From the sequence record PQ850628.1: a stretch of DNA of 64,000 nucleotides, one strand, 5' to 3'. The translations under genes were made by a program, and so were the position numbers. The notes under the pieces are model-generated. The model was not told the DNA's origin. It did no database searches and saw only the letters and a list, made by a program, of their open reading frames with translations. This DNA comes from Escherichia phage StefiGeyer_Bas88. Below, in pieces: positions 21,209 to 56,524 of this stretch (its first letter is position 1; each line of letters starts with the position of its first letter).

Positions 21209-22258
21209 ATGTCTTTATTCGGGTCTGCTTCTAAGACTAAAACTACAGTGGCTCCATCCTCTCAGGTTGATGCTCTGTTAAAACAGATTGTGGCTAATGC
21301 TCAGAATATGAACAGCAATGATGCTGGATTTATTTCTCAGCAACTAGCTGGCCTTAACCCTAACCAACAAGCTGCTCTATCTAACTTAGCTAACTCTTCC
21401 ACCTTGAATCAACTGAGTAATATGTACACTCCTCGGACACAACAAGGTCTGGATCAGATGAACACTTTGGCTCAGAGATATCAAGACTTGGCTAATAGTT
21501 CAATCAGTGCTAGTGATGTTAACAAGTTCAGTTCTGGTCTAAACAGTTCTGCACTGGCTCAGGCAACAGGAAAGGCTGCATCTAACGTATCTCTTGGTAA
21601 TGGTTCTGATTCAGGATCTCTTCGTAGGGCTGCTGCTCAGGGTGCTGCTTTGAATTCTGCTAATACCAACCTGTCTCGTACTATCTCTGGTAAGAACTTA
21701 GGTGTTGACGCTTTAAGATCTAACAGTTCCTTCCAGCAAGGCCTTCTGAACGCACAAACAGGGTTGGCTGGACAAAACCTTAACCTCGGCTCTCAAGGCA
21801 CTCAGGCAGCTCAACAGGCTATCCAGAATCAACTTACTGCTGGTAACTTACAACAGCAGCAAGATCAGACTCAAGCTGACCTTAATTGGCAGAATGCTAT
21901 TGGCAGTCAACAGTATGGATGGAATCAACTCAACAACCAATTAAATGTATTAAACTCAGTAAGTCCTGTGGCTGGTTATACAATTACTAATAAAGGAGCC
22001 TCTCCTAACACATCCCAGCAAATTCTTGGTGCTGGAGTGACTGGTCTAGGTATTGCTGGTAGATTGGGTGCTTTCACTCCTAGTCAACAAACTCAGAATG
22101 CTTGGAACTCTTATAATGCTTCGGGTGGTCAATCTGGTATGGCTGGTCCTATGATCGGTGGGTCTAACCTGTCCAATCAGAGTAATCAGAATAACTGGTT
22201 GTCTACAGCTGGGAGTAATATTTTGGGTGGTGTTCTAGGTGCCTTCGGGGCAAACTAA
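21209..22258 (+). CDS. Q/N/S-rich hypothetical virion protein
   Basis: 349 aa, low-complexity Gln/Asn/Ser/Gly-rich; RBS AAGGAGG. Confidence 0.5.
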   Translation: MSLFGSASKTKTTVAPSSQVDALLKQIVANAQNMNSNDAGFISQQLAGLNPNQQAALSNLANSSTLNQLSNMYTPRTQQGLDQMNTLAQRYQDLANSSISASDVNKFSSGLNSSALAQATGKAASNVSLGNGSDSGSLRRAAAQGAALNSANTNLSRTISGKNLGVDALRSNSSFQQGLLNAQTGLAGQNLNLGSQGTQAAQQAIQNQLTAGNLQQQQDQTQADLNWQNAIGSQQYGWNQLNNQLNVLNSVSPVAGYTITNKGASPNTSQQILGAGVTGLGIAGRLGAFTPSQQTQNAWNSYNASGGQSGMAGPMIGGSNLSNQSNQNNWLSTAGSNILGGVLGAFGAN

Positions 22259-22269
22259 GGAGGTAAATA

Positions 22270-23241
22270 ATGGCAGGTTTATTCGGTGGAGGGGGTAGCT
22301 CTTCTACTTCCAAAATGACAAGACCTGAATATATTCAATCCTATATTGACCAACTGGTTAATCAGGTGAATAACACAAGTTCAGGCGATTATGTTTATAG
22401 AGATAATGTAGGTTTCAATCAGAACCAAACTGAGGCTCTGAATAACCTTTCTCAATCAGGAGCACTTGGTGCTCTGTCTTCTCAATATATGGATGCTGCT
22501 CAATCTGGTCTGGGATATCTCGACCAAGCCAATTCAGGCTATAACAACCTATCTAACTCTGGTCAAATTACTGGTGAACAGATTGGTGCCTTGGCTGGTC
22601 AGCTCTATGACGATGAAGCTGTTCAGTCTGCTATTACAGCTAACAATGAACAGACACAACAGGATTTGGCTCGTAATGCTCTACCTCAGTTGGCTCAGCA
22701 ATATGCTGGACAGCAAGGTTCAGGTGCTAGAATGGCTAAATCTTTTGCTCAAGGTGATGCTCTTAATCAGATGCAGAACACAGCAACCAATATTACCAAC
22801 AGTGCTTATGATTCAGCTCTTAATCAAGCTCAAAGCATTCTGTCAGGTAATAGACAATCTCAAGCTTCTGCTCTAAGTGGACTCTCTGGAATTGGTAGTT
22901 CTTTATCTAATCTAGGAACCCAAGCAGGTCAACTATCCCAGCAGCAGATGAAGAATCAGTGGGCAGCAGGTTTGCAGCAACAGCAACAGCAACAAGCTGG
23001 TCTGGATAATGCTTATACAAATGCTCAGAATGCAGCCAATTGGGGCTGGCAAGACATTAACAATCAACTCGGTGCAGCTGGTGTTCTCAACGGTGCTTTA
23101 GGTACTACAACTACTAATAAGGTTTCAGGTGGTGGGAGTGGTTTCTTAGGCGGTGCTATGAGTGGCGCAGCAGCAGGCTCTTCCTTCGGACCTTGGGGTG
23201 CGTTAGCAGGTGGGGTTATCGGTGGGTTGGCTAGTTCTTAA
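22270..23241 (+). CDS. Q/N/S-rich hypothetical virion protein (paralog-like of 21209-22258)
   Basis: 323 aa, similar composition and Gly-rich C-terminus; RBS AAGGAGG. Confidence 0.5.
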   Translation: MAGLFGGGGSSSTSKMTRPEYIQSYIDQLVNQVNNTSSGDYVYRDNVGFNQNQTEALNNLSQSGALGALSSQYMDAAQSGLGYLDQANSGYNNLSNSGQITGEQIGALAGQLYDDEAVQSAITANNEQTQQDLARNALPQLAQQYAGQQGSGARMAKSFAQGDALNQMQNTATNITNSAYDSALNQAQSILSGNRQSQASALSGLSGIGSSLSNLGTQAGQLSQQQMKNQWAAGLQQQQQQQAGLDNAYTNAQNAANWGWQDINNQLGAAGVLNGALGTTTTNKVSGGGSGFLGGAMSGAAAGSSFGPWGALAGGVIGGLASS

Positions 23242-53312: not shown

Positions 53313-55346
53313 TTAATGTTTACCTTTACAGTAATCTGAATTACAGATCACCCTGTTTTCTTTGTTTAGTGAGCAAATTTCTGCATCACGCCACGGAATT
53401 TGTTTATAACAGACCGCACAAAACCCAATTGAAGTCCAGAGGGCTTTTGTGAACTCAGCTGTTCGTTGTCCGTCGTAACTGACAACTGTTTTTCGGAGAG
53501 TTGTTTGCTTTTCTGGAAATGTTTCCGCTTTCTCAGCGGGCACCTCCTTTGGGGCATTCTTTGGACCATAAACAGAGATGGCATAGGTATCGCCACCACG
53601 TTTTTCCAAATAAGAGTTTGGAACATCAGACAGCTCAATATCACCAGAACGTTTAGCTGAACTAGCCATTACAGTCATTCGGCTAAGCATACGCTGATCA
53701 ACACGAACTGCTACTTCAGGGCGACGTGGGTTAGTTGTGTCGACTGCTTTAGTCCAAATGTAACCTTCAGACAATGTAGTGTTAGTCACTTTGTCTTTGA
53801 TTTCTTTGGCACAGACATAACAAATATCTTCACCACGAAGTTTACTCATTTCGTTATCAAACTCGAAATCAGTTTTAACATTGCCACATACAGCACAGAC
53901 ACCTAAAGGAATGTCTTCATCTTCTTCAGACGGTTTGGACAACGCTTCGAAACAGGCCGGATGCCAATATGCTTGGTAAGCGAACACAGCTTTCTTAGCA
54001 TCTTTCCATTCAATGTGCTTGTCACAACCGCCACAATCACCATGAGAATGTGATTCCCAGAACTTACGGGTGACTTCCACACCATTCTTAGTGATGAAGG
54101 AGTCTTCTAAATCAAAAGGGATATCATCATCAAAATCAGCGGTGGTGCTTTGAGGCTCCTTATCGGTAGCATCAACAAACAGCCCTGAAGTGAGTACGAG
54201 GCGAATCATACTGTCCACTTCGGAGATACAAGCAACCGTCCCGCGATACACCACCTTTGGGTTTTCGAGAGCCTTCAAGTATTCACTCTTGGCTACATTA
54301 TGAACATCACCCTCAACATACTCTTGAGCAGCATCATCATAAATATAACCAACCATCTTACCACGGTCAGTGTTGTTGTAAGCGTGGAACTCGTGAGGGA
54401 TGATATCCACACGACCGTCACGACGATACGGAAGACCACGATCGGCAGCCAGTTTATTCTGATCTTCAATCGCTTTACGACGACGAATGTCTCCGCTTGT
54501 CACGCCGGGCTTGTCGTCTTTGTTTCCGTAAATGTCGCTTGTGCTGCTGCTTGACTTGTTTGTCTGTTGGTTCTGATATAGAGAGGAGTTCGAGTAATAG
54601 CCGCCCCAGCGACTCGTTACCGTAAAAACCGGAAGCTTGTGCTCCACCTCTTGAGTCAGAGTCATACGGTTGCCAGACAAATCAAAGATGTATTCAGTTC
54701 CCACTTTACACTCAAAGTGATCATTGATACGGTTCTTGTGTGACTTGGAACGATTAAGAATCCACATCAACATATCTTCTTCAGAAGCACCAAACCAATC
54801 CAGACCACAACGGGCCAGATGGAAAGGACGTTCATCGTTACGAATGATATGCAGAGTATTGTCTTTGGCGTCATGCCAGATTAAAGTGAACGCACCATCC
54901 AACTTCTGGATAGTCTCTGCTGCGCCGATGGTGTTGATTGAATGACAGATGTTTTCGCTATCAACTTCGAAATTCTTATGATCTGGTAACAGTTCCTGAT
55001 CTAACAGTGTACCATTATGAACCAGAGTAATGTCACCATGAGAGAATGGGTGAGCATTTCGAGCATTGACAGCACCACGTGTGGCATGTCGGCTATGACC
55101 AACAATCCACGATGGAGGAACTACATAGTTCGTAAGCCCCTTAGTAAGATTCGTGTACCCTGTCTGGAGCATGAAGGCATAGGAAGGAAGTGCTTCTTTA
55201 TAAGAAAATACTTTTTCATCACCTTTACGCTGACCGAACACACCAGTTGAGTGCTGACCACGGAAGACTCCAGCATACAGAAGCTGGTTGAATACGTCTA
55301 AGTCTGTGGAGGTCATGTTGCCCCCAGCTAATACGATACCACAAAT
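53313..55346 (-). CDS. class-II (Ntn-type) glutamine amidotransferase with C-terminal zinc-ribbon region; probable non-AUG start
   Basis: HSRHATRGAVNARNAHPF...HNGTL GATase-II motifs; the conserved catalytic N-terminus CGIVLAGGN lies upstream of the first in-frame ATG (55316), reached only via ATT at 55346-55344, itself preceded by AGGTGG; C-terminal Cys clusters CGGC...CAVCGN...CYVC...CAVC...CNSDYC. Confidence 0.65.
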   Translation of the reverse strand: MCGIVLAGGNMTSTDLDVFNQLLYAGVFRGQHSTGVFGQRKGDEKVFSYKEALPSYAFMLQTGYTNLTKGLTNYVVPPSWIVGHSRHATRGAVNARNAHPFSHGDITLVHNGTLLDQELLPDHKNFEVDSENICHSINTIGAAETIQKLDGAFTLIWHDAKDNTLHIIRNDERPFHLARCGLDWFGASEEDMLMWILNRSKSHKNRINDHFECKVGTEYIFDLSGNRMTLTQEVEHKLPVFTVTSRWGGYYSNSSLYQNQQTNKSSSSTSDIYGNKDDKPGVTSGDIRRRKAIEDQNKLAADRGLPYRRDGRVDIIPHEFHAYNNTDRGKMVGYIYDDAAQEYVEGDVHNVAKSEYLKALENPKVVYRGTVACISEVDSMIRLVLTSGLFVDATDKEPQSTTADFDDDIPFDLEDSFITKNGVEVTRKFWESHSHGDCGGCDKHIEWKDAKKAVFAYQAYWHPACFEALSKPSEEDEDIPLGVCAVCGNVKTDFEFDNEMSKLRGEDICYVCAKEIKDKVTNTTLSEGYIWTKAVDTTNPRRPEVAVRVDQRMLSRMTVMASSAKRSGDIELSDVPNSYLEKRGGDTYAISVYGPKNAPKEVPAEKAETFPEKQTTLRKTVVSYDGQRTAEFTKALWTSIGFCAVCYKQIPWRDAEICSLNKENRVICNSDYCKGKH

Positions 55347-55423
55347 TTTCTAATCCACCTGAAGGGTAAACCCTTTCATCTAATTAACCTTTAAATGCGC
55401 CCTTTATCAGAGCGCCCATTGTG

Positions 55424-56524
55424 TTACAGCAGTCGTTCTAATTGCATTTCCAGATGGTCTGGAATGTAATCGGTGATGTTATTATCACTGCTACCTGATT
55501 CACGCATCAGAGCAAACATGTGACGAATTTCACGAACCGTTGCGATTCGAGTGTTTTCAATCTGAGGGGTGTAATAGGTCATGATCTCTTCATAAACAGA
55601 GTTAGCATTACCTCGTACATATCCCAAGAAACCGTAGAAGTCACCCATGTCACGCAAGTTGATAAGGATTTCACCATCAGGTCCAGTCTGCTGTACACGA
55701 ACACGACCAACCAGAGTAACAGAATGTTCACGACAGAACAGAATATCACGAGCCAAACGATAACCGCCAGTCAGGTCATCATCATTAGGTGTGTAGTCCA
55801 GAGGCAGATACTGAATCATAGGAGCGAAGCGTAGCTCATTCAGTTTCTCAACATATGCTTCATTGTCCAAATCTGCATACTCAACAGCTAGTTTCTTGAG
55901 AACCAAGAAGCGGTTGACCAGATTAAGGAGTTGGCTTTTCTTCCACTTTGGCTCTGAGATACGAAATTCAACAGAACCAAACTGAGCCAGAGGTAATAGG
56001 TTAAGGGAGGTGTACTTGTCCCAGCTATTAACAAGAGTATTGAAGAAGGCTTCACCATCTCGGTTGAACGCTGCGGAAGCATTCATTACCTGTGCTTGAA
56101 CAACAGCAAAGGCAGGACAGAAGTTGCTACGATAGCGATGGTATCCAGAACATTTGAACATCATCTTTTCATAGAACGTCCATCCAAGAATTACTTTCTT
56201 CAGGATGTTACTATCAGCGTCACGCATATCCATATGAACGTGAGTAGAGCAGCGCCAAGTCCCTTCAGCTTCAGAGTCTTGTACTGCTTCACTCAGATTG
56301 TTAATAGCACTAAGCAATTCTACACCGTTATAAGGCCGTGCACAAACCATCTCACAGCCATCACGAAGTGAACCATCTTCAGTACAAACCCAAAGGTCTG
56401 CATCAATTTCAGAGGTTCCTTCAACTTCCAGCTCGATGCCAATACCACACTGAAAAGCGATGCTTGGGTGCGGCTCAGCCAGACGAGCATTACGGTATCC
56501 AAAAACTTGTGCTACGGTTGTCAT
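55424..56524 (-). CDS. glutamine-synthetase-like carboxylate-amine ligase (amidoligase)
   Basis: GIGIELEVEG and RCSTHVHMD resemble GCS2/YbdK-type amidoligase motifs. Confidence 0.5.
   Translation of the reverse strand: MTTVAQVFGYRNARLAEPHPSIAFQCGIGIELEVEGTSEIDADLWVCTEDGSLRDGCEMVCARPYNGVELLSAINNLSEAVQDSEAEGTWRCSTHVHMDMRDADSNILKKVILGWTFYEKMMFKCSGYHRYRSNFCPAFAVVQAQVMNASAAFNRDGEAFFNTLVNSWDKYTSLNLLPLAQFGSVEFRISEPKWKKSQLLNLVNRFLVLKKLAVEYADLDNEAYVEKLNELRFAPMIQYLPLDYTPNDDDLTGGYRLARDILFCREHSVTLVGRVRVQQTGPDGEILINLRDMGDFYGFLGYVRGNANSVYEEIMTYYTPQIENTRIATVREIRHMFALMRESGSSDNNITDYIPDHLEMQLERLL

Follow-up and report, generated by a model that had tools for sequence, protein, structure and literature searches.

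Where does translation begin in a gene whose catalytic residue is encoded upstream of its first ATG codon? The question is raised by a gene on the minus strand of Escherichia phage StefiGeyer_Bas88 (sequence record PQ850628.1), analysed here in a stretch of 64,000 nucleotides (nt), the whole of which we call the window. Judged by its sequence, the gene product is a phage class-II glutamine amidotransferase of the N-terminal nucleophile (Ntn) type, whose catalytic nucleophile is a Cys at residue 1 (Cys1). A list of open reading frames (ORFs) with canonical starts gives the gene as 53313..55316, 667 amino acids from the ATG at 55316. The first-pass annotation of this DNA had noticed that the catalytic Cys codon lies upstream of that ATG, and it had offered three ways in which the codon might be reached: initiation at an ATT codon (55346-55344), reinitiation after a nine-codon upstream ORF (uORF), or read-through of an amber codon. 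The analysis reported here strongly supports ATT initiation, because the in-frame TAG and the Cys codon are separated by AAA and ATT only, an AGGTGG sequence precedes the ATT by 8 nt, relatives of the genus Kuravirus have CTG in place of the downstream ATG, and a 55-nt leader with the ATT is invariant in ~96 genomes. We put the probability that amidotransferase translation truly starts at this AUU at about 80%, and we infer that AUU is the codon actually decoded. The comparisons place Cys1 within the protein, find no canonical start able to supply it, and find the ATT conserved; across the family, a hairpin together with a strong Shine-Dalgarno (SD) sequence is found to accompany ATT and ATC starts.

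The start region and the catalytic cysteine

Read on the minus strand, the region runs from an ATG (55379-55377) through AAA GGG TTT ACC CTT CAG GTG GAT to an in-frame TAG (55352-55350); then come AAA (55349-55347), the ATT, TGT (55343-55341), and GGT ATC GTA TTA GCT GGG GGC AAC. AAA and ATT are thus the sole codons that separate the TAG from the Cys. The positions that the first-pass annotation had given for the mini-ORF, its TAG, the ATT, the Cys codon, the first ATG, and the AGGTGG sequence with its 8-nt spacing are all correct, on the minus strand (Table 1).

The locus is 99.6% identical to that of Escherichia virus TH43 and 96% identical to that of phage ECBP2. Both are phiEco32-like podophages (Gordonclarkvirinae, genus Suseptimavirus), and the window is likewise from a phiEco32-like coliphage of Suseptimavirus. 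In phiEco32-like phages the gene is annotated in a cluster with genes for a COOH-NH2 ligase, an amidoligase, an ATP-grasp protein, and a gamma-glutamyl cyclotransferase. The amidotransferase protein matches Pfam GATase_6 (55.2 bits; cut-off 27) and GATase_7 (25.3 bits; cut-off 25). An alignment of eight homologues, with identity down to 39%, has invariant residues at C1, G2, V4, R28-G29, H109-N110-G111, and D128-S129; in the class-II enzymes the Arg-Gly (near position 26-27), the Asn-Gly of H-N-G, and the Asp of D-S-E serve in glutamine binding and the oxyanion site. A profile made from the alignment matches PDB entries for the glutaminase domains of PurF and GlmS (E ~1e-8), aligning query residue 1 with residue 1 of mature E. 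coli PurF (CGIVGIAG; chains 1ecb and 6czf) and the HNG and D-S-E motifs with the catalytic motifs AHNG of PurF and ETDTE of GlmS. A tblastn search of 50,697 phage records found matches in 327 and, among the matches listed, nearly all alignments open at query residue 1, the Cys. Because these alignments start at the Cys, C1, G2, and V4 are invariant, and the profile aligns the residue with residue 1 of mature PurF, the CGIV segment is a genuine part of the protein and not a chance in-frame extension. The mature protein probably begins at this Cys after removal of the initiator Met.

Two departures from the usual N-terminus were seen among the homologues. Two loci (L077 and L194) have Cys-Arg (CRLVG) at positions 1-2, which are elsewhere invariantly Cys-Gly, and one homologue (L034/L122) starts ATG-TGC-TGT-GGA (Met-Cys-Cys-Gly), with an extra Cys ahead of the conserved Cys-Gly. 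The C-terminal ~430 residues (window 53313-54600, minus strand) match no Pfam family; several CxxC pairs within them resemble zinc ribbons.

Table 1. Coordinates of features at the amidotransferase locus of the window
Feature	Coordinates	Strand	Basis
Class-II glutamine amidotransferase, full coding sequence; phi32_83 homologue; predicted ATT start, 677 codons plus stop	53313..55346	-	ORF frame; Pfam; homologous annotated ATT starts
N-terminal Ntn glutaminase domain (glutamine amidotransferase class II, GAT-II), residues 1 to ~241	54620..55343	-	Pfam; invariant C1, R28-G29, N110-G111, D128; PurF/GlmS profile matches
TGT, codon of Cys1, predicted catalytic N-terminal nucleophile	55341..55343	-	Aligned to Cys1 of mature PurF (1ecb); invariant in the eight-homologue alignment
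ATT (AUU), putative initiation codon	55344..55346	-	Sole candidate between TAG and Cys1; conserved; homologues have ATG, ATT, ATC, TTG, or GTG exactly here
SD sequence AGGTGG, 8 nt upstream of ATT	55355..55360	-	Sequence; pattern of ATT/ATC leaders in the family
Hairpin AAGGG-UUUA-CCCUU, 5 base pairs, 3' end 1 nt before SD	55362..55375	-	Centroid fold; relatives
In-frame nine-codon mini-ORF (MKGFTLQVD plus TAG), which holds hairpin and SD	55350..55379	-	Sequence; conserved in phiEco32-like phages and BUCT695
55-nt block, 100% invariant: TTAAAGGTTAATTAG, uORF, hairpin, SD, TAG-AAA-ATT-TGTGG	55339..55393	-	Alignment of nine diverse phiEco32-like sequences
First ATG, codon 11 of the ATT-started ORF; start used in the ECBP2 and SU7 records; apparently nonfunctional as a start	55314..55316	-	CTG (Leu) in Kuravirus; Cys1 lost if used
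Stem-loop GCGCUCU-GAUAA-AGGGCGC, just past the stop codon of the upstream amidoligase gene	55397..55415	-	Minimum free energy and centroid folds

Conservation of the ATT codon and its leader

A 66-nt query around the start is 97-100% identical in 96 phiEco32-like records. In nine diverse members, 55 consecutive positions (55393-55339) are invariant, and the flanking 20-nt segments have 35-85% invariant columns; coding DNA drops to ~75% identity between the two phiEco32-like genera, whereas the ATT leader stays invariant. A sequencing error at the TAG or the ATT was considered and is ruled out by the identity over ~96 independent genomes. Kuravirus homologues have CTG (Leu) where Suseptimavirus has its first ATG, and their next ATG lies more than 100 codons downstream. 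No homologue was seen to start at the downstream Met, an arrangement that the first-pass annotation had named as evidence against its proposal, and the CGIV segment is kept. The closest canonical outgroups (L027-L029, 62-65% identity) have an SD sequence followed by ATG-TGT-GGA-ATx-GTx at the same place, so that homologues with a canonical start carry their ATG immediately before the same Cys; this supports the first-pass suggestion that the catalytic Cys is reached by initiation at the ATT.

More distant relatives retain the arrangement in part. Aeromonas phage BUCT695, which belongs to a different family and whose protein is 54% identical, shows five differences in an otherwise identical leader. 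The uORF, the hairpin (with U to A in the loop), the SD sequence as AGGCGG, and TAG-AAA-ATT-TGT are all retained. Its uORF differs by F to L and V to A, both non-synonymous, one change lying in the hairpin loop and the other in the SD. Locus L190 (57% amino acid identity) has the same leader type with CTG in place of the uORF ATG, a tandem in-frame TAG TAA directly before the ATT, and a hairpin one pair longer than that of the window. Locus L130 (41% identical) has an identical GG-ATTAGAAA-ATT-TGTGG, with no start codon between its upstream TAA and the TAG. The ATT is conserved in ~96 phiEco32-like records, BUCT695, L190, and L130; the arrangement TAG-AAA-ATT, whose conservation the first-pass annotation had proposed to check, is kept in the phiEco32-like records, BUCT695, and L130.

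Start codons in deposited records

An ATT start is already annotated in phiEco32 phi32_83 (GenBank EU330206), SU10 gp085 (RefSeq NC_027395), and Bas87_0079 (PQ850594), and is in itself no novelty. Many related records call the gene from a downstream ATG or GTG and so drop the catalytic cysteine: those of ECBP2 (L001) and SU7 (L002) start at the downstream ATG and lose 10 residues, and that of phage Paul (L003) starts more than 100 codons downstream and loses more than 100 residues. The deposited coding sequences are similarly short by 53 residues in Vibrio phage VPp1 (L102, ATT start), by 36 in Pseudomonas phage O4 (L104, ATC start), and by 16 in Klebsiella phage KpnP_VR7901 (L105, ATT start). 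In all of these curtailed models the catalytic Cys is missing, and the true start, ATT or ATC, sits directly before the TGY codon. Function predictions and expression constructs based on Cys-less models would yield a dead enzyme. The start codon of the amidotransferase gene is undiscussed in the literature searched, which covered phage ATT/AUU starts and the BASEL paper, the original phiEco32 papers (Savalia 2008, Pavlova 2012) lying outside that search.

Start codons across the amidotransferase family

Loci pooled from IMG/VR, metagenomes, genome assemblies, and GenBank phages gave 153 distinct leaders. The codon before Cys1 is ATG in 118 of them, ATT in 20, ATC in 4, TTG in 8, and GTG in 3; neither ATA nor CTG was seen there in the 153. 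ATT and ATC together account for roughly 16% of the leaders. Their genes form 11 clusters at 55% protein identity, which a neighbour-joining tree scatters over five or more distinct positions. All 24 have open reading frames and the H-N-G motif, and all but one have the R-G motif. In 20 of the 24 leaders the stretch from the ATT or ATC back to the first in-frame stop contains no canonical start in frame. A propeptide translated from an upstream canonical start was considered for these genes and rejected; it is possible in only four of the 24 leaders, and sister sequences do not agree in it. Well-supported natural AUU or AUC starts are very rare. Together, AUU, AUC, AUA, and CUG make up 0.004-0.024% of annotated bacterial starts, and E. 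coli has two AUU genes, infC and pcnB (PMC5499595). The enrichment of ATT and ATC in the phage family is partly one of ascertainment, since Cys1 fixes the start position and no other ATG can hide a near-cognate start.

The start codon classes also differ in their spacing from the upstream gene (loci L022-L214). In homologues with ATG starts the median gap is 3 nt, TAATG overlaps are frequent, and translation is mostly coupled to that gene; those with ATT or ATC starts have a median intergenic gap of 67 nt.

Four short scaffolds (560-924 bp; L187-L190) assigned to Herbiconiux daphne CPCC 203386 each hold a different fragment of a phage-type amidotransferase, with 48-57% identity to the window. 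The gene start is covered in three of them, with TTG, GTG, and ATT as start codons. They look like phage contamination and not genes of the actinobacterial host.

Structure of the ATT and ATC leaders

The ATT and ATC leaders have a common layout. An SD sequence of at least 5 nt is present in 22 of the 24, with a modal spacer of 8 nt that is A/U-rich, and a hairpin of 4-7 base pairs with a loop of 3-5 nt ends 0-2 nt before the SD. The stem sequences vary by lineage (AAGGG/CCCTT, CCCAG/CTGGG, AACCTC/GAGGTT, AAAGCC/GGCTTT, GACTC/GAGTC, CCTGA/TCAGG, and GCTAC/GTAGC), and on these sequences the hairpin is a covarying one. When a hairpin was defined as at least four contiguous pairs, including at least two G-C pairs, with its 3' end no more than 6 nt from the SD, it was found in 20 of 24 ATT/ATC leaders, 3 of 11 TTG/GTG leaders, and 9 of 118 ATG leaders. 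Counted by lineage (clusters at 55% identity), the figures are 9/11, 3/10, and 5/68, respectively (p = 5e-7 for ATT/ATC versus ATG). When only leaders that lie 30 nt or more from the upstream gene are counted, the hairpin is present in 19/21 with ATT or ATC versus 5/36 with ATG (p = 1e-8); the expectation from shuffled sequences is ~0.10. Within the window the combination of hairpin and strong SD at the head of an ORF was found once, at the amidotransferase gene, and no description of it was found in the literature searched. An RNAalifold run on an ungapped alignment of four leaders has the hairpins register-shifted between leaders. Under either a single or a repeated origin of these leaders the weak codon has long been retained, even though one T-to-G substitution would turn it into ATG.

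Some further elements were noted in subsets of the leaders. In L042, L043, L070, L146, L105, and L147 a TTAGAAAATA(A/G)TTT-like motif precedes the SD-adjacent hairpin by ~10-15 nt; as a possible promoter, it would put the hairpin at the 5' end of the mRNA. A weak second hairpin, with small energies, is predicted in the leaders of phage O4 (L104), KpnP (L105), L053, and BUCT695 (L020), where the 3' end of the SD and the spacer (GGAUA/GGAUU) pair with the start-codon region (UAUYU/AAUUU); if formed, it could partly mask the AUU or AUC. A helix in the minimum free energy (MFE) fold of the window leader, GGUUUACC/GGUGGAUU, which sequesters the SD, was examined as a conserved feature and discarded, as it is broken by both BUCT695 substitutions.

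How the AUU codon may be used, and the alternatives

In the explanation that we favour, a 30S subunit would bind the AGGUGG sequence 8 nt upstream of the AUU, and initiator fMet-tRNA would pair with this near-cognate codon to give fMet-Cys-Gly-Ile-Val... as the product. Deformylase and methionine aminopeptidase would then take off the Met, as happens with PurF and GlmS of E. coli, and expose Cys1 as the nucleophile. The weak codon would sit in a dedicated initiation region (hairpin, 1 nt, strong SD, A/U-rich 8-nt spacer) whose sequence is frozen across the phiEco32-like phages. The hairpin and the strong SD may compensate for the weak codon or tune it; possible ways are that the hairpin holds the SD single-stranded, stacks on the SD:anti-SD helix, or shields the 5' end of the mRNA. 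By analogy with infC, the purpose may be expression that is limited or sensitive to initiation factor 3 (IF3). The nine-codon uORF, whose stop is separated from the AUU by 3 nt, may contribute a degree of reinitiation like that at the thrS-infC junction; the family-wide pattern does not call for it.

A broader proposal is that the leader is an initiation module in its own right, preserved by selection (short hairpin, 0-2 nt, strong SD, ~8-nt A/U-rich spacer, AUU or AUC, Cys1) that replaces coupling to the upstream gene, that glutaminase synthesis thereby depends on IF3 discrimination, which would act as a dosage limiter or as a timer of the infection stage, and that the hairpin helps near-cognate initiation. 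We hold this proposal tentatively, as one that has a real chance of being right but is somewhat more apt to be wrong. Several observations weigh against the favoured explanation. The hairpin criterion was set by the analyst, and the lineage counts vary with clustering thresholds. Single-sequence folding energies of these short leaders are no better than those of shuffles (z -1.9 to +0.6), and the MFE structure of the window leader is the alternative helix that sequesters the SD, the hairpin appearing in the centroid fold. The SD-plus-spacer sequences (GGAGGATAG..., GGTGGATTAG...) look related across ATT/ATC lineages, and on the sequences a single ancient leader is as likely as repeated evolution. 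The invariance of the phiEco32-like leaders fits constraint on the RNA and constraint on the uORF peptide alike, and does not separate de novo initiation from reinitiation. Finally, the SU10 homologue has been seen by mass spectrometry with nine peptides (PMC4281155), but its N-terminal peptide is not in the SU10 proteomics supplement.

Termination and reinitiation could instead be the main route: the uORF (ATG 55379 to TAG 55350) would be translated, AGGUGG would hold the ribosomes, and they would restart at an AUU that is otherwise near-silent. The geometry, 3 nt from stop to AUU and an SD that falls within the preceding ORF, is that of thrS-infC (PMC3592434), the uORF ATG and TAG are conserved in ~96 phiEco32-like genomes and BUCT695, and the uORF ATG is itself preceded at 8 nt by an AAGG; moreover, ATG-start homologues are normally coupled to an upstream gene, for which the uORF could be a surrogate. 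Yet the uORF has lost its ATG in L190, no start codon precedes the TAG in L130, and nine other ATT/ATC lineages have no comparable uORF. BUCT695 has no SD-like run of G residues before its uORF ATG, and both changes in its uORF are non-synonymous; the hairpin, moreover, starts 2 nt past the uORF ATG and would thus hinder 30S binding at the uORF. The sequences therefore leave reinitiation possible in phiEco32-like phages, as the first-pass annotation had suggested, and find no conserved requirement for it: the uORF appears dispensable because it is absent in relatives with the same leader. As the main route we consider it unlikely.

The other two routes fare worse against the same relatives. 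Ntn amidotransferases with autocatalytically cleaved propeptides exist, for example B. subtilis PurF, and the uORF is in frame with the amidotransferase; a start at the uORF ATG with suppression of the TAG could in this way yield a 12-residue propeptide, MKGFTLQVD-X-KI, that removes itself. Ordinary E. coli hosts, to our knowledge, lack efficient amber suppression. L190 has the tandem TAG TAA before its ATT, and in L130 the TAG-AAA-ATT follows no upstream start; on these two grounds the sequences contradict the amber-suppressed propeptide of the first-pass annotation, and read-through with a cleaved propeptide is rejected as a general mechanism. Other ATT/ATC lineages have their stop triplet after the SD out of frame or have none, and the BUCT695 uORF changes are solely non-synonymous; for the window gene itself read-through is scarcely credible. 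Initiation at the first ATG (55316), the start of the ECBP2 and SU7 annotations, would mean a Cys-less protein with an inactive or repurposed amidotransferase domain and an upstream CGIV segment that is a relic. Several GenBank records choose this ATG, and in Suseptimavirus a G-rich GGGGG lies 5 nt upstream of it. It is nevertheless very improbable as the start, given that Kuravirus has CTG at that codon and its next ATG more than 100 codons downstream, that the 10 upstream codons are conserved as protein family-wide with C1, G2, and V4 invariant, and that all remaining catalytic residues are kept, which would be needless in a Cys-less relic.

Other features of the locus

The stem-loop just past the amidoligase stop codon shows compensatory changes between genera (Suseptimavirus GCGCUC/GGGCGC, Kuravirus GUGCC/GGCAC); it has no U-tract and so is not a canonical terminator. 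A promoter and terminator scan of 55000-55800 found none, and an Rfam scan of 55200-55500 at permissive E-values returned chance-level matches only. A TTTAAA(T/G)GT(A/T)AA element (window 55380-55393, minus strand) stands ahead of the amidotransferase start irrespective of the start codon in phiEco32-like, Grimontviridae-like, and Pseudomonas Lyrsu03 phages (L020, L027, L029-L032, and L103). In the window it resembles, without matching, the consensus tAATGTAtA of promoters recognised by the phiEco32 sigma factor gp36, whose known sites lie upstream of genes 6, 13, 26, 40, 58, and 68, with none at 83 (PMC8948821, PMC4331800). The invariant TTTAAAGGTTAATTAG was considered as a candidate gp36 promoter; it agrees at only ~6 of 9 consensus positions, and the motif is unrepeated within the window. 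Elsewhere in the window, at 22230-22270 on the plus strand, a very strong SD (TAAGGAGGT) and an ATG come after a tetraloop hairpin (TGCC-TTCG-GGCA), an arrangement in which a highly expressed gene is probably initiated.

Comparison with known systems

The phage protein has in common with the class-II Ntn enzymes PurF, GlmS, and AsnB a glutaminase domain with Cys1 and the R-G, H-N-G, and D-S-E motifs, and we propose that Cys1 is exposed in the phage protein as it is in PurF and GlmS of E. coli, through loss of the initiator Met. Those enzymes carry a known synthase domain, whereas the phage protein has its C-terminal ~430 residues with CxxC pairs and no Pfam match. The phage gene also differs from that class in starting with AUU, not AUG, and its product from B. 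subtilis PurF in having, on the present reading, no propeptide.

As to initiation, infC is the closest parallel. Its product is IF3, whereas the phage gene product is unrelated to translation, and its upstream ORF is a real gene, whereas the phage counterpart is a nine-codon mini-ORF that is absent from related leaders. We know of no description of an SD-abutting hairpin for infC. The two genes are alike in keeping their start codon over long evolutionary distances, in having an upstream SD, and in the 3 nt that separate the stop of the preceding ORF from the AUU (PMC3592434). E. coli infC, like the phage gene, has a non-canonical AUU start, and in infC AUU and AUC are interchangeable across bacteria (PMC5499595), as they are across the phage family. 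Initiation at AUU or AUC under IF3 control is established for infC, and AUU initiation for pcnB (PMC5499595, PMC3592434); at the thrS-infC junction, UAA GGU AUU, de novo initiation and reinitiation have roughly equal shares (PMC3592434). In E. coli pcnB, which encodes poly(A) polymerase and shares the enterobacterial setting, the AUU start has been read as keeping expression low (cited in PMC3592434 and PMC5499595). The phage gene differs from pcnB in its strong SD and structured leader, and dosage limitation is for the phage gene a conjecture. The phage uORF also recalls synthetic bicistronic designs and natural coupling, in which a short leader ORF holds the downstream SD and stops a few nt from the start; it differs from these in that stop and start are 3 nt apart rather than overlapping, the restart codon is AUU, and translation of the uORF is putative.

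The amidotransferase gene is thus a well-supported further member of the small class of AUU-initiated genes. What the comparison adds to existing annotation is that AUU and AUC starts recur in this phage amidotransferase family, with a hairpin and strong SD region that appears to stand in for translational coupling. Because Ntn chemistry pins the start codon, the family offers 24 distinct natural AUU/AUC initiation regions with a common hairpin and strong-SD architecture, which can be used to ask what enables near-cognate initiation and whether phages control an early enzyme through IF3 discrimination. If the module proposal is true, they form a natural and unambiguous collection of AUU/AUC initiation sites, with Cys1 fixing the start position in each.

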